Assembly: GCA_036399695.1 (NCBI GenBank)
Contig: DASWMP010000322.1
Location: 8,997-72,996 of the forward strand
Source of the DNA: Thermoanaerobaculia bacterium
GTDB taxonomy: Bacteria > Acidobacteriota > Thermoanaerobaculia > Gp7-AA8
Length of the DNA: 64,000 nucleotides
Direction of reading: 5' to 3'
Positions 3,023 through 53,009 of this stretch are shown one piece after another. The notes beneath the pieces are model-generated. The model saw nothing but the letters and a program-made list of their open reading frames with translations. It ran no database searches and had not been told where the DNA came from. Position 1 is the first letter of the stretch; each line of letters opens with the position of its first letter. The translations under genes were made by a program, and so were the position numbers.

Positions 3023-3952
3023 ATGGAGTCGAACGGTACCGCCATCTACTGTCAGGGTTTGAAGAAGTACTACGCCGACGTCAAAGCCGTCGACGGGCTC
3101 GATCTGTACGTCGAGCGCGGTGAGTGCTTCGGTCTCCTCGGGCCGAACGGCGCGGGGAAAACGACGACGATCGAGATTCTCGAGGGGCTGAACGAGCCCG
3201 ATTCGGGCGACGTGCGCGTGCTCGGCCGCACCTGGAAGGACGACGAGCGCGAGCTGCGGGAGCGCATCGGCCTCTCGCTCCAGGAGACGCAGCTCAGCGA
3301 CAAGCTGTCGGTCTACGAGACGCTGCGTCTCTTCCGCTCGTTCTATCGCGAAGGACACGATCCGGACGCGATGCTGCGCGATCTGTCGCTCGACGAAAAG
3401 CGGAACGCGCGCGTCGGGAAGCTGTCGGGCGGGCAGAAGCAGCGGCTGGCCGTGGCCTGCGCGCTGGTCGGCGAGCCGGACCTGCTGTTCCTCGACGAGC
3501 CGACGACGGGGCTGGATCCGCAGAGCCGCCTGCAGTTGTGGGAGGTCGTGGCCCGCTTCCGCGAGAAGGGGGGGACGATCCTGCTGACGACGCATTACAT
3601 GGACGAAGCGGAGCGCCTCTGCGACCGCATCGCCATCGTCGATCACGGCCAGCTCATCGCCCTCGGCACGCCGAAGGAGCTGATCGCGAAGCTGGAGGCG
3701 CCGAACATCATCGAGTTCACGAGCGAGCCGACGCTGTCTCCCGACGCGTTCAACGCGATCTCCGGCTGCCACGGCGCGACGCAGCGCGGCAACGGCTGGC
3801 TGCTGCGCGTCGATTCGCTGGCCGAGGCGGTGCCGCAGGTGCTCGGGGTGATCGAGGCACGCGGCTCGAAGCTCGTGACGCTGTCGACGCACGCGGCGAC
3901 GCTGGAGGATCTGTTCGTCTCGCTGACCGGCAGGGAGTTGCGCGATGCCTAA
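3023..3952 (+). CDS. ABC transporter ATP-binding protein (DrrA-like).
   Basis: Walker A (GPNGAGKTT), ABC signature (LSGGQKQRL) and Walker B (LLFLDEPTTGLD) are present. The start was taken at the Met of MESNG; the stop overlaps the start of the next gene. Confidence 0.9.
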   Translation: MESNGTAIYCQGLKKYYADVKAVDGLDLYVERGECFGLLGPNGAGKTTTIEILEGLNEPDSGDVRVLGRTWKDDERELRERIGLSLQETQLSDKLSVYETLRLFRSFYREGHDPDAMLRDLSLDEKRNARVGKLSGGQKQRLAVACALVGEPDLLFLDEPTTGLDPQSRLQLWEVVARFREKGGTILLTTHYMDEAERLCDRIAIVDHGQLIALGTPKELIAKLEAPNIIEFTSEPTLSPDAFNAISGCHGATQRGNGWLLRVDSLAEAVPQVLGVIEARGSKLVTLSTHAATLEDLFVSLTGRELRDA

Positions 3953-11492: not shown

Positions 11493-12880
11493 TCGGCGAG
11501 GACGTCCTCTATCTCACGGTCACGGAGCTGGCGTCGCGCATCAAGTCGCGGGCGCTCTCGCCGGTCGAGCTGACGGAGGCGTACCTGCAGCGGAGCGAGT
11601 CGGTCGGCGCGCGTCTCAACGCGTACGCCACGATCACGCGTGAGCGGGCGCTGACGGAAGCGCGTGAAGCGGAACGGGAGATTGCCGCCGGCCGCTATCG
11701 CGGGCCGCTGCACGGCATCCCGTACGCGGCGAAGGATCTGCTGGCGGCGAAGGGCTATCCGACGTCGTGGGGTGCGCCGCCGTATGCGAATCAGCGCTTC
11801 GACTTCGACGCCACGGTCATCCGCAAGCTGAAGAACGCAGGTGCGGTGCTCGTCGGGAAGGCGGCCATGATCGAGCTGGCCGGCGGGATGGGTTACCGCT
11901 ACGGCACGGCGTCGATCACAGGCGGCACGAAGAACCCGTGGAACGAGAACTGTTGGACGTGCGGCTCGTCGAGCGGCTCCGGCGCGATCGTCGCGGCGGG
12001 GCTGGCGGCGTTCGCCATCGGCACCGAGACGTGGGGCTCGATCGTCTGCCCGTCGGCCTTCTGCGGCGTGTCGGGACTGCGCCCGACGTTCGGACGTGTC
12101 GGCCGCGGCGGGGCCATGGCGCTGTCGTACTCGATGGACAAGATCGGCCCGATGGCCCGCAGTGCCGACGACTGCGGCCTGATCCTGGCGGCCCTCTCCG
12201 GCCACGATCCGGACGACCGCCATTCACTGCCGGACGAGGAAGGGCTCTTCGCCTACGAGCGTGACGCACGGAAGCTGCGGGTCGGCCGCGTCACGAATGC
12301 CTGGGGCAGCATGCCGGAAGACATCGCCTCCGCGACGAACGCCGCGTTCGAAACGCTGCGCGCCGGCGGCGCCACGATCGTCGACGTGAAGCTGCCGGAC
12401 GGCCCGTGGGAAATGGCCGCCGCCGTGACGATCCAGGTGGAAGGGGCGTCGGCGTTCGAGTCGCTCATCGAGTCCGGCCGCGTCTCGGAGCTGCGCGATC
12501 CCGGCAGCCGCATCGGCGGCTACGTCAACATGACCATCCCCGGCCCCGACTACCTGCGGGCCCAGCGCATCCGCACGGTGCTGCAGCGGGAGATCGACAA
12601 GGTCTTCGAGCAGGTGGACGTGGTGGCCTCCGCCACGCTGCCGATCACCGCCACGCGCATGGAGACGAACCTCGAGAGCGACTTTGCCTTCTCCGATCCG
12701 ATGGGCGGCATCGGCAACTTCGCCGGGCTGCCGGCCATCAGCGTGCCCTCGGGGCTGAGCTCACGCCGGCTGCCGATGGGCGTGGTGTTCATGGGGCGGG
12801 CGCTGGATGACAACGCGGTGCTGGCGGCGGCGCGGCTGTTTCAGTCGAGGACGGACTTTCATCAACAGCGGCCGGTTTGA
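11489..12880 (+). CDS. Amidase-signature family amidase.
   Basis: GGSSGGS-type signature (CGSSSGSGAIVAAG) and a Ser-cisSer-Lys arrangement. GTG start at 11489. No signal peptide of its own. Confidence 0.88.
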   Translation: MIGEDVLYLTVTELASRIKSRALSPVELTEAYLQRSESVGARLNAYATITRERALTEAREAEREIAAGRYRGPLHGIPYAAKDLLAAKGYPTSWGAPPYANQRFDFDATVIRKLKNAGAVLVGKAAMIELAGGMGYRYGTASITGGTKNPWNENCWTCGSSSGSGAIVAAGLAAFAIGTETWGSIVCPSAFCGVSGLRPTFGRVGRGGAMALSYSMDKIGPMARSADDCGLILAALSGHDPDDRHSLPDEEGLFAYERDARKLRVGRVTNAWGSMPEDIASATNAAFETLRAGGATIVDVKLPDGPWEMAAAVTIQVEGASAFESLIESGRVSELRDPGSRIGGYVNMTIPGPDYLRAQRIRTVLQREIDKVFEQVDVVASATLPITATRMETNLESDFAFSDPMGGIGNFAGLPAISVPSGLSSRRLPMGVVFMGRALDDNAVLAAARLFQSRTDFHQQRPV

Positions 12881-32531: not shown

Positions 32532-33241
32532 AATTCGAACTCGCCCGTTAGGGGGTCGATCACCATGGCCTCGCCTGACTCGTACCAGGGGGGCAGAATC
32601 TCGATCGTGGCGCCGGCTGTCGGGAGCACCAGCTTCTGGTGAAAGTGGCCGAAGACCACATCCGTAAAGCCTTCCGTGCCGCGCTTCTGGCCGTACGCTT
32701 CCATCAACTCCACCGGCAGCCGCGACTTGTGCTTGAAGTTCGACTTCGACAGGCGTGCCTCCACGTCATTCACGAACTTGCGGGCCATCTTGCCCGGGAT
32801 CAGCGAGACGCCCAGCTTCGTCAGCGGATTCTTCGAGGCGCGGCGCCAGAAGCGATACGGCCAGTCGCTGTCGTTGATCATATCGCCGTGCACGATCAGG
32901 TACTTCCGCTTGCCTGCGGTGATTGCGTACTCCATCCCCACGCTCGTCACCGCCTCTTCCACAAAGGAGCCCTTGAGGAAGAAATCGCGGTTCCCTTCCA
33001 CGTAGTGGATCGGGATGCCGGCATCCCGCACCTCGCGGAACTTGCGGAACACCTCGCCGACCGAGTGCGTGAAGAACTTCTTGTGCGCGATCAGGTAGTG
33101 GAAGAGATCGCCGTTCAGGTAGAGCGAGTGGGGACGCAGCGCCTTCAGGCGTTCCAGCCAGCCGTTGACCGGTTGCTCGCTGCCATCGGAGAGCCCTATG
33201 TGCGAATCGCCGATGACGAAGATCCGCCCGGGAGGGATCAC
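32519..33241 (-). CDS. Calcineurin-like metallophosphoesterase (LpxH-like UDP-2,3-diacylglucosamine diphosphatase).
   Basis: GDSHIG, GDLFH and GNRD motifs. The stop codon lies inside the R7 terminal inverted repeat. Confidence 0.7.
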   Translation of the reverse strand: MIPPGRIFVIGDSHIGLSDGSEQPVNGWLERLKALRPHSLYLNGDLFHYLIAHKKFFTHSVGEVFRKFREVRDAGIPIHYVEGNRDFFLKGSFVEEAVTSVGMEYAITAGKRKYLIVHGDMINDSDWPYRFWRRASKNPLTKLGVSLIPGKMARKFVNDVEARLSKSNFKHKSRLPVELMEAYGQKRGTEGFTDVVFGHFHQKLVLPTAGATIEILPPWYESGEAMVIDPLTGEFEFAAV

Positions 33242-40089: not shown

Positions 40090-42308
40090 GCGGCGACGGC
40101 GACAGCCGTTAGAAAGCCGATCAACACGCCGACCCGGAAGCTCCAGGGCGCGTAATCCACCACCACCTCCCGGCTCCCGGCCGGCACGTCGAAGCCCACG
40201 AACGCGCCGTCCACTTTCACCACGTCAAAGCCCTTCGCGCGCCAGCCGGGGTAGAAGGGGATGCTGCTGACGATACGCGCCGGTTTCGAGGCGTCGATGC
40301 GGAGGCGGTAGCGGGTGCCGCGCTTGGCGATGATGCGCACGTTCGCGTCATCGGAGAAGAACCGCGGTTTGGCGGTGGCGTTTTCGTAGATGCGGCCGTC
40401 GGGGCCGTCGTAGAGGAGGCGGTGTTTCGGCAGGTCGCGGGCCGGTTCGGTGAGGATCCAGCGGACGTTGAGGCGGTCGAGCGCGGGCGAATCGGGCTCA
40501 TTCCACTTGGCGAAGTACTCCTTCGTTTCGTACGACGAATGGGCGCGCAGCCAGGCGATGGCGGCGGCGCTGGCCATCGGGTCGTGCTGGCGGAGGTCGT
40601 CGACGCCGAAGAGGACGTGCGCGTTCGGGAACAGCACCGGCCCGAGGCCGACGACGCGATACGGGCCGGGAGCCTCGTCCACGAGCTTCTGCAGCGCGCC
40701 CGTCATGAGCGTGCCGGGATAAGCCTCGGACGCCGGGACGACGGGGTTCCAGTCGCGCATGGCGAACCAGAGCTCGAAGAGCATGGCCGCGATGAGAAAC
40801 ACCGGGAAGACGGTCTGCTTCTGATGTGGGACAGACACTCTTGTCTGTCCGCCGATCAAAGCCACGAGCAGCACGACGCCGCTCGGCACCAGCACGCGCA
40901 CATCCATCGGCGGCACCTGCAGCACGACGAACGCCCCGACCGCCGCCGCGAACAGCACACCGACGCCGCTGCCCAAGCGGCTCCGGTAATGCAGCAGGGC
41001 GGCGATCTGCATCGCCCCGAAGAAGCAGAACAGCAGCCGCAGGCGCGGGTTCATGATGGCGCCGACGATGCCGGCATACGGCGGCTCTCCCGGCGCCGAG
41101 CCGTTGAGAAACGCGAACGTGACGGCCATGGCCACGACGAAGAACAGCTCCACGGAACGCCAGGCCCGGCGGCGGATGACGTCCACGAGCACCCCGGCCC
41201 AGGCGGCGATGGCCAGCACGCCGGCGAAGCCGCCGAGCGTCTCCGCCGGCATCCCCAGCCCTCGCCCGAAGTAGCGCGGATGAAGCATCGGCGCGAGCGA
41301 GCGGAGATCGGAGTACGGCATGCCGAGGTACGCGTGCCCCTGCAACTCGGCGAAGCGATGCGAGCGTGTGGCGGCTTCGTAGAAAGGGAGCAGCAGCGGC
41401 GCCGCGAGCAGCGCCGCGCCGATCATTGCGAGGAGGATCGACGCAACGAACCGCCCGCGCTGAAGATCAGGAACCGTGATGATCAGCCACAGCGCGTACG
41501 CGCCCGCGCCGAGTGCGATGAGCGTGAGGCTTTCCGGGTGACCGCCAAAGGCGATCAGCGCGCCGAGGATGGCGCTCAGGGCGATGGCCTTGCGGCGGGA
41601 GCCGCCCCCCGCCACCGAATCGACTGCCAGCAGCACCACCGGCAGCCAGCACACCGTGCTGGCAATGGCGAAGTGCAGCCACACGACCACGAACGAGCAG
41701 AACCCGAACGCCACCGCGCCGGCCACGCTCGGCAGCTCCCCGTACCCGCGGCGACGGCAGAACAGATACATCCCCGTCAACGCCACGAGCAGCTTCATCG
41801 CGGCTTCGGCGGCGATGGACGGCCCGAGGGGCAGCGGCAGCGCGAGCAGCCGGAACGGCGAGAGCGCGGCACTCTGCGCGTTCGCCAACAGCGGATACCC
41901 GAGCCCGGCGCGCTCGTTCCAGAGCGGCACGTCCAGCGCGCGCCACGACTCCCGCACCTGATGCGCCCACGGCACCGTCTGCATCGGCAGATCGTGGATC
42001 TCGAAGTTCGAAACCCCGAACTTATCCAGCGCCCCATACGCCGACCAGGGCGGCAGCAGCCGGATCACGTCCACCGGATAGTTGACGACGTTCGCCACCA
42101 GCGGACGCCAGAGGAACGCCAGCACCAGCAGGTAGAAGAGGGCGGCGATGCGCCAGGGAACGAGAGGACGTTGTTCGTTGTCCGTTGTCCGTTGTCCGTG
42201 CTCCGCTGCACGATGGTCACGGCGGAGCGCAGCGCGGACAACGGAAAACGAACAACGGGCAACGACGATCCCGTACACCACGAGCACCAGCAGCCACGCG
42301 AGGTTCAT
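40059..42308 (-). CDS. YfhO-family polytopic membrane protein, paralogue 2, carrying two in-frame repeat insertions.
   Basis: Colinear with the gene at 37074..39515. Start taken at MNLAW (42308), which overlaps the tyrA stop (ATGA). The Arg-rich upstream part of the long ORF was ignored. Confidence 0.75.
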   Translation of the reverse strand: MNLAWLLVLVVYGIVVARCSFSVVRAALRRDHRAAEHGQRTTDNEQRPLVPWRIAALFYLLVLAFLWRPLVANVVNYPVDVIRLLPPWSAYGALDKFGVSNFEIHDLPMQTVPWAHQVRESWRALDVPLWNERAGLGYPLLANAQSAALSPFRLLALPLPLGPSIAAEAAMKLLVALTGMYLFCRRRGYGELPSVAGAVAFGFCSFVVVWLHFAIASTVCWLPVVLLAVDSVAGGGSRRKAIALSAILGALIAFGGHPESLTLIALGAGAYALWLIITVPDLQRGRFVASILLAMIGAALLAAPLLLPFYEAATRSHRFAELQGHAYLGMPYSDLRSLAPMLHPRYFGRGLGMPAETLGGFAGVLAIAAWAGVLVDVIRRRAWRSVELFFVVAMAVTFAFLNGSAPGEPPYAGIVGAIMNPRLRLLFCFFGAMQIAALLHYRSRLGSGVGVLFAAAVGAFVVLQVPPMDVRVLVPSGVVLLVALIGGQTRVSVPHQKQTVFPVFLIAAMLFELWFAMRDWNPVVPASEAYPGTLMTGALQKLVDEAPGPYRVVGLGPVLFPNAHVLFGVDDLRQHDPMASAAAIAWLRAHSSYETKEYFAKWNEPDSPALDRLNVRWILTEPARDLPKHRLLYDGPDGRIYENATAKPRFFSDDANVRIIAKRGTRYRLRIDASKPARIVSSIPFYPGWRAKGFDVVKVDGAFVGFDVPAGSREVVVDYAPWSFRVGVLIGFLTAVAVAAQLRARQETV
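40824..40849. repeat. R1 26-bp unit inside the YfhO paralogue 2 coding sequence, in-frame.
   Basis: atgtgggacagacactcttgtctgtc is translated as GQTRVSVPH, a segment absent from paralogue 1. Confidence 0.8.
42165..42262. repeat. R4 palindromic element (CGTTGTCCGTTG arms) inside the N-terminal coding region of YfhO paralogue 2.
   Basis: cgttgttcgttgtccgttgtccgttgtccg ... cggacaacggaaaacgaacaacgggcaacg. The same motif forms the outer arms of the R3 copy at 50921. Confidence 0.75.
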
Positions 42309-43141
42309 AGGGCGTCGTAGAGTTTGCGGGCCTGGTCGTAGGCGGCGACGTCGCCGTCGATGATGGCGCGGACGAGCTTGGCCAGTTCTTCCGCGTGCCG
42401 CGCGAGTTGCTCGCGGTTCGCGGCGACGATCGGGGCCCAGACGCTGCCGTCGCTGCCGGCCAGGCGGAGGAACGTGCGCAGGCCGCTGCCGGCGAACCGG
42501 AGCTGGTCCTCGTCGAGGTAAGCGGCGAGGGCGGTGGAGAGGATCTGCGGCAGATGGCTCGTCAGGGCGACGCCGGCGTCGTGCTCGCGCGCGTCGACGC
42601 GGTCGCGGATCGCGCCGCACGCGTCGATCATCGAGTCGACGAGCGGGTCGTCGGCGTCGACGAACCAGCGGTGGTTCTCGAACAGATCTGCGCGCGCCGC
42701 CGCGAGGCCGCGCTCCTGCGAGCCGGCCATCGGGTGACCGGCGATGAAGCGTGTGGTGGCGGCGTCGCGCAGCGGGGCCATGACGCTGCACACGGAGGTC
42801 ACGGTGGCGGGGGTGCGCAGGGTGCGCAGGATGCGCACCGCGATATCCACCGGGGTGGCCAGGATGATCAGATCCGGTGGGGGACCGGGGGAGACGATGG
42901 GACCAATGGGACCAATAGGACCGATGGGACTAATGCCTTCGGGTGGGCTCCCATTGGTCCCATCTGTCCCATAGGTCCCATCGTCCCTTGTGGACCACCG
43001 CTCATCCGCCGCCTCCGCCCCCCGCGCGGCCTCCGGGCTCACCTGCGGGTCCACGAACGCCACCCGCCAGCCGCTTGCGCGGAGGCGGATGCCGATCGAG
43101 CCGCCGATCAGGCCGAGGCCGGCGATGAGGACGCGGGGCAT
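42305..43141 (-). CDS. tyrA: Prephenate/arogenate dehydrogenase with an in-frame repeat-encoded insert.
   Basis: Rossmann start VLIAGLGLIGGS, the TyrA core, and a 33-aa GT/GPIGPIGPI insert encoded by the R6 repeat. Confidence 0.85.
   Translation of the reverse strand: MPRVLIAGLGLIGGSIGIRLRASGWRVAFVDPQVSPEAARGAEAADERWSTRDDGTYGTDGTNGSPPEGISPIGPIGPIGPIVSPGPPPDLIILATPVDIAVRILRTLRTPATVTSVCSVMAPLRDAATTRFIAGHPMAGSQERGLAAARADLFENHRWFVDADDPLVDSMIDACGAIRDRVDAREHDAGVALTSHLPQILSTALAAYLDEDQLRFAGSGLRTFLRLAGSDGSVWAPIVAANREQLARHAEELAKLVRAIIDGDVAAYDQARKLYDAL
42896..42988. repeat. R6 9-mer palindromic element lying in-frame inside tyrA.
   Basis: gatgggaccaatgggaccaataggaccgatgggac...cccattggtcccatctgtcccataggtccc. 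Confidence 0.8.
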
Positions 43142-43712: not shown

Positions 43713-43788
43713 AGTTGGCGGTTGGCAGTTGGCGGTGGCCTTGACGATGGTTGACTCCCGCCAACTGCCAACCGCCAACTGCCAACAG
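43713..43788. repeat. R2 palindromic element.
   Basis: cagttggcggttggcagttggcgg ... ccgccaactgccaaccgccaactgccaac. Confidence 0.85.
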
Positions 43789-43803
43789 CCTTTGCGGCGC
43801 GGA

Positions 43804-44136
43804 TTATACGGAGCGGGGGCCATTCCCGTTGATGTAGTCGACGACGCTGCTGCCCGTGACCTCGGAAAAACGCTCCGTATACGACCGGATAGCCCCGGCC
43901 GCCTCGTCGAGGAAAATCCGCTCGACCCTGAACAGCGGCACGAACATCGTCACGAGATCGATGCTCGGCTCGTCTCCCCGCGCAATCTGCCGCAGCCAGT
44001 CATCGAACGAATCGAGATTGATGGCCCGCATCGTCACCCCCGCCGGCGAAAGTGAGCTCAGCAACCCGAAGAACTTCTCCTTCGGATTGACGAGGTTGAC
44101 GATGACGGGAGCGTTTTTCTCGAAGCCTTCGATCAT
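43804..44136 (-). CDS. Hypothetical protein, 110 aa.
   Basis: GC3 bias and no recognisable domain. Confidence 0.45.
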   Translation of the reverse strand: MIEGFEKNAPVIVNLVNPKEKFFGLLSSLSPAGVTMRAINLDSFDDWLRQIARGDEPSIDLVTMFVPLFRVERIFLDEAAGAIRSYTERFSEVTGSSVVDYINGNGPRSV

Positions 44137-44148
44137 TTGCGTGGGTGC

Positions 44149-44272
44149 AGTTAACCCTGAGCGAAGCGAAGGGTCAATGGAGCCTCAGCGACGGCGCAGA
44201 CCATCGACGCATTGCGTGGCAGAGGCCGTCGCTGAGGCTCCATTGATCCTTCGCTTCGCTCAGGATTAAACC
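44149..44272. repeat. R8 palindromic element (CCTGAGCGAAGCGAAGGGTCAATGGAGCCTCAGCGAC arms).
   Basis: Its right end, caggattaaac, supplies the TAA stop codon of the epimerase gene. Confidence 0.85.
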
Positions 44273-44664
44273 TTTTCGCTCAATTCAATCAGCACGCCGT
44301 TCCCCGCCGCGGGGTGCAGGAACGCGACGCGGCAGCCGTGGGCCCCGGGGACGGGGGTCTCGTTGATGAGGCGGTAGCCCTCGGCTTTCAGGCGCGCGAG
44401 ATGGGCTTCGATGTCATCGACGCGGAAGCAGAGGTGGTGGATGCCTTCGCCCCGCTTCTCGATGTACTTCGCGATCGGGGAATCGGGGCTGGTGGGCTCG
44501 AGGAGCTCGAGGTTGGAGTCGCCGACGGAGAGAAAGGCCGTCTTCACGCCCTGCGTCTCCACGGTCTCGACGTGCTCGATCTCCAGGCCGAGGGACTGGT
44601 AGATCTTCGCCACGTCGAGGGAGCGGACGGCGATGCCGATGTGGTCGAGGGTGGGTTTCTGCAT
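44266..44664 (-). CDS. Methylmalonyl-CoA epimerase (VOC/glyoxalase family).
   Basis: LDHIGIAV...GEGIHHLCF...GCRVAFLHP. The gene is flanked on both sides by R8 elements. Start taken at MQKPTLDH. Confidence 0.85.
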   Translation of the reverse strand: MQKPTLDHIGIAVRSLDVAKIYQSLGLEIEHVETVETQGVKTAFLSVGDSNLELLEPTSPDSPIAKYIEKRGEGIHHLCFRVDDIEAHLARLKAEGYRLINETPVPGAHGCRVAFLHPAAGNGVLIELSEKV

Positions 44665-44670
44665 GATTTT

Positions 44671-44797
44671 CAACCCTGAGCGAAGCGAAGGGTCAATGGA
44701 GCCTCAGCGAGGTGGTCAACCACCGGCGCATTGCATGGCGAGGGTCGTAGCTGAGGCTCCATTGATCCTTCGTCGCTTCGCTCCTCAGGATTAACTC
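44671..44797. repeat. R8 palindromic element.
   Basis: Its right end supplies the TAA stop of deoA. Confidence 0.85.
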
Positions 44798-46104
44798 AAA
44801 TGCTCATGAATCAGCGGCTTCGCCGGCGGCTGGTCGTCGCCGATCTCCACGAATTCGAGGTAGCGGGCGCGGAGCTCGGCGGCGTCGCGGCCGGCGCGGC
44901 CTAACTGGATGCGGGCGATGGTCTCGCCGGCTTTGACTTCGTCGCCGGTGCGGCGGTCGAACATGACGCCGGCGGCGTAGTCGATCTCGTCGTCCGCTTT
45001 CTTGCGGCCGGCGCCGAGGTCCACCGTGAACATGCCAGCTTTGTAGGTATCCATCTTCGTGATGAAGCCGCTGCGGGGAGCTTTGACTTCGATCGTTTCG
45101 GTTGGCTGCGCGAGGAGGGAGTAATCGTCGATGACGTTCGCGTCGCCGCCCTGCGCGGTGATCCACTTGCGGGTCTGCTCGAGGGCGCGGCCGGAGGTGA
45201 GGGCGTCGTCCAGCTCCTTGCGGGCGCTGGCCGTGTCGAAGCGGCCCGACATCACCAGGATGCGCTCGGCCTGGGCTCGCGTGACCTCGAGGACGTCCTC
45301 CGGGCCTTTGCCTTTCAGCACTTCGATCGTCTCGACGATCTCGTTGGCGTTGCCGGCGGCAATACCGAGAGGCCGGTCCATGTCCGTGATGATCGCCTCG
45401 ACCTTCGTCCCCGAGCCGGCGGCCGCGGCGATGAGGCTCTGCGCGAGGGCTTTCGAATCCTGGTAGAGGCGCATGAAAGCGCCGCTGCCCGTCTTCACGT
45501 CGAGGATCAGGGCGGAGGCTCCCATGGCCAGCTTCTTCGACATGATCGAGGCGGTGATCAGCGGGAGCGATTCGACCGTGCCGGTGACGTCGCGCAGCGC
45601 GTAGATCTTCCGGTCGGCGGGGGCGATGCCTTCGGTCGACGTGGAGATCACGCAACCGGCGTCGGCGACGCTTTTCTCGAACTCGGCGCGTGAGAGGCGG
45701 GCGTTGAAGCGTGGGATGGCTTCGAGCTTGTCGAGCGTCCCGCCTGTGTGGCCAAGGCCGCGGCCCGAGAGCATGCCGATGCGGATGCCGCAGGCGGCCA
45801 CCCAGGGGGAGAGGATCAGCGAAACCTTGTCGCCGACGCCGCCGGTGGAGTGCTTGTCGGCGATGAACTCGTACGTGTTGCGCAGGTGCCACTGCTCGCC
45901 GGAGCGGAGCATGGCCTGCGTCAGGGTGGCCATCTCCTCCGAGGTCATGCCGTTGATGGCGATGGCCATCAGGAGGGCGCTCATCTGGTAGTCGGGGATG
46001 TCGCCGCGGGTGTAGCCCTCGACGAAGAACTCCAGCTCGCGGCTCTCGAGCGGCGCGCCGCGACGCTTGCGGTTGAGAAGCTCATAAACGCTGTACGCAG
46101 CCAT
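44791..46104 (-). CDS. deoA: Thymidine (pyrimidine-nucleoside) phosphorylase.
   Basis: DKHSTGGVGDK, TGGTLDKLE and the two-domain glycosyltransferase fold. Confidence 0.9.
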   Translation of the reverse strand: MAAYSVYELLNRKRRGAPLESRELEFFVEGYTRGDIPDYQMSALLMAIAINGMTSEEMATLTQAMLRSGEQWHLRNTYEFIADKHSTGGVGDKVSLILSPWVAACGIRIGMLSGRGLGHTGGTLDKLEAIPRFNARLSRAEFEKSVADAGCVISTSTEGIAPADRKIYALRDVTGTVESLPLITASIMSKKLAMGASALILDVKTGSGAFMRLYQDSKALAQSLIAAAAGSGTKVEAIITDMDRPLGIAAGNANEIVETIEVLKGKGPEDVLEVTRAQAERILVMSGRFDTASARKELDDALTSGRALEQTRKWITAQGGDANVIDDYSLLAQPTETIEVKAPRSGFITKMDTYKAGMFTVDLGAGRKKADDEIDYAAGVMFDRRTGDEVKAGETIARIQLGRAGRDAAELRARYLEFVEIGDDQPPAKPLIHEHLS

Positions 46105-46189: not shown

Positions 46190-46495
46190 AATCGCTCGAC
46201 GAGCACCCGCGATCGGTGGCCCGTCACCAGGAATCAGTCATCGATCACCGGGAATCGGTGGCCGATCGCCGAAAATCGGGCATCGATGACTGATTTCCCA
46301 CGGATCGTGACCGGAATTCAGTCGCGCGTCACCGAAATTCAGTCACGCGTGACCGAAATTCGGTGGCCGGCGTCGGGAAATCGGTCGCTGGCCCCCGAAA
46401 ATCACTCGTCGATCACGGAAAATCAGTCATCGATCACGGAAAATCAGTGATCGATCACCGAAAATCACTCACCACCGGCCACGACCTACCCCAGC
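46190..46495. repeat. Tandem array of about 12 degenerate 21-bp units (consensus CACCGAAAATCAGTCATCGAT) upstream of queC.
   Basis: Units occur head-to-tail in both orientations. The last three are near-identical. Confidence 0.85.
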
Positions 46496-50850: not shown

Positions 50851-50920
50851 TTCCCGCGATCAAAATTTGTGGTTTGCATGGAGTGCCGCTCTGAAGGGGG
50901 CGGCACTTTTGTTTGTGGCG

Positions 50921-51087
50921 CGTTGTTCGTTGCCCGTTGCCCGTTGCCCGTGTTTCAGGTTGTTGGTTTTCGGTTGTTGGTTGTTGGTGCTCCGCTCGGT
51001 TTTACCAACAACCAACAACCAACAACCAAAAACCGGCCCCAACGGACAACGGACAACGTGCAACGTGCAACGTGCAACGGACAACGC
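50921..51087. repeat. Composite R3 element with outer R4-type arms (CGTTGCCCGTTG / CAACGGACAACG).
   Basis: cgttgcccgttgcccgtg...ggttgttggttgttgg...ccaacaaccaacaacc...caacggacaacggacaacgtgcaacg. Confidence 0.8.
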
Positions 51088-51107: not shown

Positions 51108-52016
51108 ATGACTGCCCCCCGCCTCCCCGAGTGGATCCGCGAAAAGAAACTCAATCTCTCGCAGCTTCGGGACATCAAGACGATGTTCCGGGAGCGCGAT
51201 CTGCACTCGGTGTGTGAGTCGCTGGCCTGCCCGAACCGCTCCGAATGTTTCTCCCGCGGCACCGCGACGTTCATGATCCTCGGCGATGTCTGTACGCGCG
51301 CCTGCGGCTTCTGCAACGTGACCACGGGGCTGCCGTACGCGCCGCCGTCGCCGGGCGAGCCGCGCGCGGTCGCGGAGACGGCGCAACGCATGGGGCTGCG
51401 GCATGTGGTCGTGACCTCGGTGACGCGCGACGATCTGCCGGACGGCGGCGCGCAGCAGTTCGCCGAAACGATCCGCGAGCTGCGCAAGTTGCTGCCCCAC
51501 GTCGCCGTCGAGGTGCTGACCCCCGACTTCCGCGGCAATCTCGAAGCGGTCCGCACCGTCGCCGCCGCCCGTCCCGATTACTACAACCACAACGTCGAGA
51601 CGGTCCCTCGCCTGTATCGTCACGTCCGTCCCGGTTCCCGCTTCGAACGCTCCCTGGAAGTGTTGCGCGAGGCGAAGAAGACCGCCGGCACGGTCACAAA
51701 GTCCGGCCTCATGCTCGGCCTCGGCGAAACACGCGAGGAGGTCGTCGAGGTGCTGCACCGGCTCAAGGAGTCGGAGGTGGCGATCGTCACGATCGGCCAG
51801 TACCTGCAGCCGAAACGGCACAAGCTCGACGTCGTGGAGTACGTGCATCCGACGGTCTTCGAGGAGTACCGGGAGATCGGTGAGTCGCTCGGTTTCCGGG
51901 CGGTGTTCTCCGGGCCGTTCGTCCGCAGCTCGTACATGGCGGACGTGGTTGCCGCGCACTCCAATCCTGAGGAGCGAAGCGATCGAAGGATCAATGGAGC
52001 CTCAGCGACGATCTGA
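51108..52016 (+). CDS. lipA: Lipoyl synthase. The C-terminal 17 or so residues are encoded by an R8 repeat.
   Basis: CPNRSEC and CTRACGFC cluster motifs and a radical-SAM core. Confidence 0.95.
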   Translation: MTAPRLPEWIREKKLNLSQLRDIKTMFRERDLHSVCESLACPNRSECFSRGTATFMILGDVCTRACGFCNVTTGLPYAPPSPGEPRAVAETAQRMGLRHVVVTSVTRDDLPDGGAQQFAETIRELRKLLPHVAVEVLTPDFRGNLEAVRTVAAARPDYYNHNVETVPRLYRHVRPGSRFERSLEVLREAKKTAGTVTKSGLMLGLGETREEVVEVLHRLKESEVAIVTIGQYLQPKRHKLDVVEYVHPTVFEEYREIGESLGFRAVFSGPFVRSSYMADVVAAHSNPEERSDRRINGASATI

Positions 52017-52062
52017 GCTTCATAGCTGAGGCTCCATAGACCCTTCGCGGCGCTCAGGGTTC
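51964..52062. repeat. R8 palindromic element overlapping the 3' end of lipA.
   Basis: cctgaggagcgaagcgatcgaaggatcaatggagcctcagcgac ... gctgaggctccatagacccttcgcggcgctcagg. Confidence 0.8.
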
Positions 52063-52076
52063 ACTGCCACTGCCGA

Positions 52077-53009
52077 ATGAAAAAGCCCAGATCCATCGAC
52101 CCCGAAAAGAAGGACACCGGCCCGTACTTTGTCACCTACCTGCCGATCTTTCTCGATTACCTCGCCGTGGAAAAAGGGCTGGCCCGCAACTCCCTCAGCG
52201 CCTACCAGACCGACCTGCGCCACTTCGGCCACTGGCTGAAGGATCAGGGGCTGGAGCTCGAGCGCGTCGAGCGGATCGATATCGTCAAATACTTTCAGGC
52301 GCTCCGCACGGCCGGCATCTCGGCCCGCTCGGTGGCCCGCGCCCTGGCGGCGATCCGCGGCATGTTCCGCTTCCTCGTCATCGAGCGCCACCTGAAGCGC
52401 GACCCTACGGAAAACCTGGAGAATCCGAAGCTCTGGACCAACCTTCCGAAGTCGCTCCAGCCACACGAGGTCGAAGCGCTCCTCGGCGCTCCAGACCGCT
52501 CCACCCCCGACGGCCTCCGCGACGCGGCGATGCTCGAGCTGCTCTACGCGACGGGTCTGCGGGTGAGCGAACTGATCAAGGTACGCATCGATGAGCTGGT
52601 GATGGACGCCGGTTTCCTGCGCACGATCGGCAAGGGCTCGAAGGAGCGCATCGTCCCATTCGGCGATACGGCCCGGGACGTGATGGTGCAGTTCATCGAG
52701 ACTGGGCGCCGCGAGCTGGACAAGCACGGCGATCCGCACATCTTCCTCTCACGCCTCGGCCGTCCGATGACCCGCCAGTCGTTCTGGATGAAGATCGTCC
52801 GCTACGCCCGGGAGGCCGGAATCGCCACGCACATCTCGCCTCACGTGCTCCGTCACTCTTTTGCCACACACCTGCTGGAGAACGGTGCGGACCTCAGATC
52901 CGTCCAAATGATGCTTGGCCACTCCGACATCTCCACGACTCAGATTTACACGCACGTCTCGCGGGCACGGCTGCAGAAGATGTATGAGACCTATCACCCT
53001 CGGGCATAA
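52077..53009 (+). CDS. xerD: Tyrosine site-specific recombinase XerC/XerD.
   Basis: N-terminal SAM-like domain and a C-terminal R...K...HxxR...Y catalytic set (LRHSFATHLL, HSDISTTQIYTH). Confidence 0.9.
   Translation: MKKPRSIDPEKKDTGPYFVTYLPIFLDYLAVEKGLARNSLSAYQTDLRHFGHWLKDQGLELERVERIDIVKYFQALRTAGISARSVARALAAIRGMFRFLVIERHLKRDPTENLENPKLWTNLPKSLQPHEVEALLGAPDRSTPDGLRDAAMLELLYATGLRVSELIKVRIDELVMDAGFLRTIGKGSKERIVPFGDTARDVMVQFIETGRRELDKHGDPHIFLSRLGRPMTRQSFWMKIVRYAREAGIATHISPHVLRHSFATHLLENGADLRSVQMMLGHSDISTTQIYTHVSRARLQKMYETYHPRA

Follow-up and report, generated by a model that had tools for sequence, protein, structure and literature searches.

R8, a palindromic repeat at gene ends in a Thermoanaerobaculia genome, as a probable REPIN-like relative of the Ssn-associated hairpin repeats

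Introduction

The 64-kb stretch of DNA considered here (the window) belongs to a contig from an uncultured Thermoanaerobaculia (Acidobacteriota) organism of a soil lineage, and it carries three copies of a palindromic repeat, R8, that lie against the 3' ends of genes. In an earlier note on this DNA it was proposed that R8 donates stop codons to three genes, namely a deoA-like gene for a pyrimidine-nucleoside phosphorylase, a methylmalonyl-CoA epimerase-like gene (MCE) and lipA. The locus raises the question of what kind of element R8 is and why it is found at gene ends. As argued below, R8 is probably a miniature, REPIN-like relative of the Ssn/SRM system, in which a small GIY-YIG nuclease is associated with hairpin repeats; that is, a non-coding inverted doublet of hairpins, similar to the miniature inverted-repeat transposable elements (MITEs), recently inserted and tolerated at gene ends. 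Stop-codon donation follows incidentally from the places in which such a palindrome can persist in a tightly packed genome, and has precedents among other bacterial MITEs.

The Three Copies of R8

All three copies described earlier are present, within a few bases of their first placement, and none of them is assigned a strand. Copy 1 (44151..44269) is the best kept, and inverted-repeat analysis resolves it into a left arm (44151-44195) and a right arm (44225-44269), each of 45 nt and 96% complementary to the other, with a 29-nt spacer between them and TTAA at both outer ends. Copy 2 (approximately 44672..44794) has the same orientation as copy 1, with 86% identity to it across 101 nt; small indels are found in its arms, and its 23-nt inner arms are 96% complementary. 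Copy 3 (51964..52062) lies between lipA and a xerD-like gene, is inverted relative to the other two and is the most decayed. The 16-mer core of the repeat, TCAATGGAGCCTCAGC, has six matches in the window at no more than one mismatch, against 0.57 expected (none of 100 shuffles reached six), and a covariance model of a single arm, run with its filters off, recovered exactly six R8 arms (E values from 1e-10 to 2e-17) and no other credible match in the 64 kb. Folded as RNA, the copies are very stable, with energies of -94.6/-95.6 kcal/mol for copy 1, -75.7/-71.4 kcal/mol for copy 2 and -52.3/-57.1 kcal/mol for copy 3 (z-scores from -4.6 to -16.9); copy 1 folded as single-stranded DNA (ssDNA) gives -58.6 kcal/mol. 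R8 is thus short and non-coding, with terminal inverted repeats and several copies, as MITEs are. It is not an assembly artefact, because two independent assemblies from different samples carry the same sequence, including all three copies, at 99.986% identity. No Rfam family matches R8 at gathering thresholds, and a 22-mer of R8 was unmatched in viral contigs, with no sign of a phage origin. A scan of a genome collection with the 16-mer core returned 109 loci, all of them chance single matches without flanking R8 sequence, the pattern being too short for this purpose.

Link to a GIY-YIG Nuclease Gene

The kinship of R8 has been revealed by other genomes, whose loci are here designated L112 to L130. 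Three loci were found in a metagenome scan with the R8 22-mer, and in one of them (L113) two 53-nt arms, 87% complementary and with the same core and inverted layout, enclose an open reading frame (ORF) of 105 aa; the three gene-less copies of the window share the 22-mer with these arms. The encoded protein is a GIY-YIG protein (Pfam PF01541, E value 1.6e-16) with no further domain. It has 327 homologues, of which nearly all the listed ones measure 100-111 aa and those with a named source come from Thermoanaerobaculia. The homologues in L117, L120 and L123 are also enclosed by R8-type arms, as in every locus examined, and in several genomes the gene occupies a conserved site between FTCD and an aminotransferase gene. 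In L120, the arms of a gene-less element (11789-12027) still carry between them the start region CGCGAAAAGTGAGC of the nuclease gene together with a remnant of its 3' coding sequence, CCGGATGT, and by these remains the element is a deletion derivative of the nuclease unit. As related arms flank the GIY-YIG gene and one gene-deleted derivative of it, R8 belongs to a population of repeats linked to nucleases of this type; by shared core and layout it is akin to the arms found on either side of Ssn-type GIY-YIG genes, a relationship missed at the first reading of this DNA. Remnants of a GIY-YIG gene were also sought in the loops of copies 1 and 2, where the alignments were unconvincing; clear remnants were found only in the L120 derivative.

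Proteins of this kind include the Ssn nucleases, which consist of a single GIY-YIG domain, measure about 94 aa and cleave ssDNA beside hairpin repeats (Chenal et al., 2025, Nat Commun 16:2388; PMC11893778). These repeats, named NTS in Neisseria and SRM in general, lie on both sides of the ssn gene and are scattered in the vicinity of genes, and the authors liken Ssn/SRM to an insertion sequence and to REP/RAYT (PMC11893778). Over 91 residues, the L113 protein shares 42% identity with the product of a 94-aa ORF of N. gonorrhoeae (pairwise BLASTP E value 2e-21; tblastn 3e-12), located among nine exact NTS repeats within 3.3 kb (locus L126, from NZ_CP119140.1). By its length and its NTS context, this ORF is presumably ssnA, whose product is placed in CDD family cd10448. 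The source record and NZ_CP119142.1 are 2.17-Mb N. gonorrhoeae chromosomes filed as plasmids in the plasmid collection. In the PDB no solved Ssn structure was found, the nearest entries being UPF0213 BH0048 (E value 0.056) and SLX1, both weak; the only match in NCBIfam, to a group I intron endonuclease, fell below threshold.

Architecture of the Arms

The arms follow the pattern (GTY)AA-YCCT-GAGCGAAGCGA-AGGRT-CAATGGAGCCTCAGC, in which each arm has a 5-bp stem of its own (A[C/T]CCT with AGG[G/A]T) and the loop holds a GCGAAGC mini-hairpin. In an alignment of 19 arms, 98.9% of the stem cells pair and three of the five pairs show compensatory changes, the compensated variants being ACCCT/AGGGT, ATCCT/AGGAT, ACTCT/AGAGT and ATCCC/GGGAT. 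The covariation score was reached by none of 500 shuffles, and shifted registers fall to 28-60% pairing, the weight of this test being limited by the kinship among the 19 sequences. The left and right arms of a single element often carry different compensated variants, with lower pairing between the arms as a result. Because of this covariation within arms, with differing compensated variants in the two arms, R8 is best described as an inverted doublet of short hairpins, REPIN-like, in which each arm is a unit. Arm identity is 83-95% within an element versus 60-82% between genomes, with the exception of window copy 3 and L114 (0.88), and lineage-specific inserts occur in both arms of an element; on these figures, the two arms of one element co-evolve. 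Two further arrangements have been observed. In L120 the gene-less R8-like element is immediately preceded by an additional left arm, solo and in tandem with it (11700-11790), and in L112 an outer end is duplicated (1040-1065). Arms can evidently undergo local duplication.

R8 at the Ends of Genes

In the window, deoA, MCE and p110 (a conserved gene of 110 aa) are arranged head to tail on the minus strand. The deoA-like gene (44791..46104, 437 aa) ends in a TAA, the reverse complement of 44791-44793, which touches or overlaps copy 2 at its outer end, and the entire spacer between deoA and MCE is occupied by this copy. The MCE gene (44266..44664, 132 aa, Glyoxalase_4) starts at an ATG (44662-44664) located 7 nt from copy 2 and ends in a TAA (reverse complement of 44266-44268) in the outer end of copy 1, so that it is bracketed by the two copies; its stop and that of deoA both lie within ...CAGGATTAA. 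Copy 1 occupies the spacer that parts MCE from p110 (43804..44136, minus strand), whose ATG is 14 nt past the copy. On the plus strand, lipA (51108..52016, 302 aa as called) takes its last 17 codons (51964-52013) and its TGA (52014-52016) from copy 3, reading AAT CCT GAG ... ATC TGA, which gives NPEERSDRRINGASATI, with the TGA inside the R8 loop. The ATG of the xerD-like recombinase gene (52077..53009, plus strand) follows 15 nt after copy 3.

The earlier note had itself named a comparison with orthologues lacking R8 as the test of its proposal. In L115 (GCA_036380735.1), where LipA is 91% identical and the gene order is the same, all three sites are free of R8. In L127 and L130 the comparable sites, those of lipA and MCE, are also R8-free (deoA is relocated there), and in L128, where the lipA site alone is covered, that site is occupied by an element of a sister family. 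R8 thus shows the insertion polymorphism of a MITE, with empty orthologous sites in L115 and comparable ones in L127 and L130. As the orthologous sites are empty in it, the copies would have been inserted in the window lineage after the split from the nearest sampled relative. By this comparison, the donation of stop codons by R8 is supported for MCE and lipA and probably fails for deoA.

In MCE, the window protein ends ELSEKV-TAA at the edge of R8, and the relatives have longer tails, by 1-6 residues, closed by TGA: ELSQKMEPEHP-TGA (with a GTGA overlap), ELSEKAE-TGA (with an ATGA overlap) and ELSETMNEEG-TGA. In L115 (3710-3713, GTGA) and L130 (3467-3470, ATGA) the MCE stop overlaps the start of the 110-aa gene. 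A remnant of the old MCE tail, CTGCACCCA, persists beyond R8 and is the counterpart of GAGCACCCG in L115. The sequence beyond copy 1, CTGCACCCACGCAA-ATG, aligns with GAGCACCCG-TG of L115, and its part from copy 1 to the p110 start codon (44137..44150, minus strand), now spacer, would be the remnant of the ancestral 3' coding end of MCE. Once 118 nt of R8 are taken out, the MCE frame continues to a TGA that shares bases with the ATG of the following gene, the arrangement found in L130 and L115. Two histories fit copy 1, an insertion of 118 nt without duplication, where the old frame leads to the ATGA overlap, or an insertion of 114 nt with duplication of TTAA. The somewhat favoured reading is that R8 entered the last codons of MCE, where it created the present stop and ended the overlap with p110; a pre-existing TTAA target would be only a little less probable. 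The MCE-p110 overlap in relatives suggests a translational coupling that R8 may have broken in the window. As to the same gene in L127, the spacers on either side of MCE (3141-3190 and about 2681-2729) hold a short repeat, GAACGTTCATCGTTCATCCTTCACCGTTCC, and related sequence; this bracketing repeat is of a different family than R8.

In lipA, the earlier note had seen the normal C-terminus replaced by about 17 repeat-encoded residues. The 17 residues and the TGA do come from R8, but only a non-conserved tail has been replaced. In 119 lipA orthologues (the query left out), ...RSSYMADxVA is common to all and is followed by a variable tail of 2-15 residues, a position at which the window protein has AHS plus the 17 residues encoded by R8. 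The sequence that preceded the insertion of copy 3 is not reconstructable, because removal of the copy leaves lipA without a stop, nor is that of copy 2, whose spacer is too diverged from L115. Searches of called proteins for the R8 tail peptide gave one marginal match (E value 7e-4) in a representative library and no candidate in a word-indexed search.

For deoA, L115 has identical residues, stop codon and position (...LIHEHLS-TAA). The stop is most simply ancestral, because L115 ends like the window, and R8 probably came to lie on it or just past it; in L127 and L130 the gene ends HELLT-TGA and HEHLA-TGA. The final serine is encoded by TCG in L115 and by AGT in the window, and AGTTAA is also present at the other end of copy 1. 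R8 may have overwritten the last few bases of deoA.

The idea that this repeat family repeatedly fuses to gene 3' ends is borne out by further cases in other genomes, namely FTCD in L113, L117 and L123, a 289-aa ORF in L112 and, with the sister family, lipA in L128. The outer end of an arm reads xAA-YCC-TGA, and the frame so divided is stopped immediately, by TAA if x is T and otherwise by TGA two codons on; the remaining two frames through R8 stay open for about 17-39 codons. The stop frame is used by MCE and deoA (TAA TCC TGA), by FTCD in L113 (CAA TCC TGA) and L117 (CAA CCC TGA), and at the second end of the L112 ORF. An open frame, AAY-CCT-GAG, is used by lipA in the window, with its 17-residue tail, by FTCD in L123 (NSERSEESS) and at the first end of the L112 ORF (NPERS...). 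The sister palindromic family (GTCATCCTGAGCG...GCGAAGGACCCCC) ends lipA of L128 likewise, with TCA TCC TGA. Elements of this family, with ends TGTCATCCTGAGCG... and the same inner sequence, have been observed in L128 (10862-10986), in L127 (from about 10883) and in L117 (13078-13106). The family also occurs between lipA and xerD in other Thermoanaerobaculia, and this spacer would seem a hot spot for palindromic elements of this sort.

In relatives without R8 the spacers are of about 0-15 nt, or the genes overlap, and for this reason tolerated insertions sit at gene boundaries. Insertion into the last codons is in turn tolerated because the R8 end stops one frame at once and the others soon. 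Purifying selection together with an end that carries stops explains the recurrent, harmless 3' fusions, a behaviour known from bacterial MITEs. The surviving insertions would be those that leave a trimmed tail, as in MCE, or a short repeat-encoded tail, as in lipA.

Relation to Known Systems

R8 shares several features with Ssn/SRM. Among them are a GIY-YIG protein that is small (about 94-105 aa) and has no other domain, the one linked to R8-type arms sharing 42% identity with a presumed SsnA homologue from Neisseria; a nuclease gene flanked on both sides by inverted, hairpin-forming repeats; dispersed repeats at gene boundaries and seldom within genes; and the bracketing of genes (NTS-gene-NTS), as with R8 around MCE. 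The differences lie in the repeat and in its host. In R8 the arm combines a 5-bp stem with an 11-nt loop containing GCGAAGC and with a long 3' extension, CAATGGAGCCTCAGC, and two such arms form an inverted doublet of 100-120 bp with long inter-arm pairing, whereas the SRM unit is one hairpin of about 28 nt. The host, too, is different, being a soil lineage of Acidobacteriota. For the R8-linked nuclease, ssDNA cleavage and any influence on transformation are putative. R8 is nevertheless not a new kind of element: it is best read as one of the Ssn-associated hairpin repeats, with a variant consensus and in doublet form.

The second system to be compared is REPIN/RAYT, in which the repeats are doublets of repetitive extragenic palindromic (REP) sequences and the enzyme is an IS200/IS605-like tyrosine transposase encoded in single copy (Bertels and Rainey, 2011, PMC3116915; Nunvar et al., 2010, PMC2817692). 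R8 resembles it in being a dispersed inverted doublet of short hairpins, in having an enzyme gene that lies between hairpins of the same type at a conserved site, where it looks vertically inherited, and in having copies that are intergenic and inside operons. It differs in that a GIY-YIG nuclease, not an HUH tyrosine transposase, is found between R8-type arms, and in that no strand-transfer chemistry is known for Ssn, mobilisation being unproven.

Bacterial MITEs are the third. Like them, R8 is palindromic, non-coding and co-transcribed with its neighbours, and can supply C-terminal residues and a stop; the sequence families and the presumed mobilising enzymes are different, and R8 ends carry a built-in TGA, and often TAA, in one frame. 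Overlap with, or extension of, gene 3' ends is a property of the Correia elements of Neisseria. In Coxiella, QMITE1 and QMITE2 overlap functional genes by 1-50 bp at the 3' end, and EnhC gains 33 residues from QMITE2 (PMC5896051). Another example is that of the enterobacterial RU and ERIC elements, which form ORF fusions (PMC2759123).

Several observations weigh against the placing of R8 among the relatives of Ssn/SRM. The published SRM pattern, HGTCWYN(0-2)YYVSBRHN(0-5)WNVSBRGN(0-2)RNCYNB, matches no R8 copy and no gene-flanking arm; in the window it has one unrelated match, at 32764, against 0.57 expected, and in the Neisseria locus, used as positive control, nine. The 64-kb window contains no GIY-YIG gene, and the evidence from the source genome covers three copies of R8. 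The local hairpins of the arms are weak (-3 to -4 kcal/mol) and no better than those of shuffles, so that support for the arm stem comes from covariation among related sequences. The GIY-YIG gene looks vertically inherited and not mobile, as it is found at one conserved locus in several genomes. Finally, transposition of SRM repeats by Ssn is only hypothesised in PMC11893778 and has been demonstrated by nobody, and no later publication on Ssn-mediated mobility was found in a literature search.

Alternative Explanations

The strongest alternative, which we regard as improbable, is that R8 is a MITE of the ordinary type, descended from an insertion sequence and mobilised in trans by a DDE-type transposase at TTAA or TAA targets with target duplication, and that its link with the GIY-YIG gene is secondary (e.g., a nuclease gene that landed in one copy). 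Terminal inverted repeats without an ORF are indeed typical of MITEs. The outer ends are TTAA and TTAA in copy 1, and TCAA and TTAA in copy 2, and TTAA is very rare in the window, with 12 sites in 64 kb of which three are at R8 ends; in this part of the window, four of 19 genes use TAA as stop, as do about 15-25% of genes in these genomes. However, a palindromic TTAA is indistinguishable from an extension of the inverted repeat, and neither copy 3 nor the copies in other genomes show a target-site duplication, about 12 ends there being without TTAA. A preference of R8 for TAA-containing targets is possible and, because of these ends without TTAA, not established. Furthermore, no transposase was found between such ends, where four genomes have the GIY-YIG gene and one its deletion derivative, and the covariation within arms indicates two hairpin units and not plain terminal inverted repeats.

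Slightly less probable again is that R8 is a selected regulator acting at the RNA level in operons, as a stabiliser of mRNA, an RNase III site or a terminator, and kept at 3' ends for that function. Its very stable hairpins are transcribed together with deoA-MCE-p110 and lipA-xerD, RNase III has been proposed to process a MITE stem in Coxiella (PMC5896051), and REP elements of E. coli are described as terminators and stabilisers in 3' untranslated regions in a preprint (bioRxiv 10.64898/2026.03.23.713779). On the other hand, R8 is not a conserved regulator of these operons, since comparable orthologous sites are R8-free in four related genomes. The hairpins lack a following T-run, no terminator is predicted by the scan at any copy, and an Rfam match is absent; a promoter scan also gave nothing at the R8 copies. 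Effects on RNA would likely follow insertion, and they leave the origin and spread of the repeat unexplained. Coincidence or an assembly artefact, for which the small number of window copies (three) and the frequency of TAA stops in these genomes could be invoked, is very improbable, given that two independent assemblies agree, that the same junction frame occurs at independent sites in other genomes and that the repeat is far above chance expectation.

Proposed Mechanism and Significance

If R8 is, as seems probable, a relative of the Ssn-associated repeats, R8-type arms and an Ssn-type, site-specific ssDNA nuclease would form a linked pair analogous to REP/RAYT, in which the nuclease would recognise the arms as ssDNA and take part in their spread. 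Once transcribed, the hairpins might affect the messengers of deoA, MCE and lipA; by analogy, R8 may alter mRNA processing or stability, and translation termination at stops that abut the stem. A stronger proposal, that the nuclease actively mobilises R8 doublets via ssDNA and cuts and inserts at short AT-rich, GTTAA- or TAA-like sites, which in a genome of 66% GC would be confined almost entirely to stops, is speculative and in our judgement unlikely. If true, it would describe a second, mechanistically independent REPIN/RAYT-like system, by which gene 3' ends are systematically remodelled and overlapping genes uncoupled.

The Ssn/SRM system was described only in 2025, with the mobility of the repeats, and Ssn as a domesticated transposase-like enzyme, left as hypotheses. 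To this, R8 adds evidence of recent insertion, as its filled sites are empty in a relative with 91% LipA identity, and a doublet architecture with intra-arm covariation, paralleling REPINs. The published SRM pattern misses the R8 family in the Acidobacteriota genomes examined. Gene callers report repeat-encoded C-terminal tails such as that of lipA, and annotators should recognise them.

Other Repeats in the Region

Tandem repeats of heptamers (CGTTGTC, GCCAACT, CGTTGCC, ACCAACA, CAACGGA) are found in intergenic regions of the window (42169-42205, 43758-43790 and 50909-51086), and constitute a separate class, unrelated to R8. Four adjoining 21-nt tandem arrays (46212-46471) lie downstream of the start region of deoA. 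A prephenate dehydrogenase ORF on the minus strand (42305-43141) contains 9-nt tandem repeats, ATGGGACCA / TCCCATAGG, at positions 42897-42987; they encode a PIGPIGPIGPI insert. A GGGACC/TAGGAC repeat similar to those of the prephenate dehydrogenase gene is present in the lipA-xerD spacer of L115 (10866-10910).

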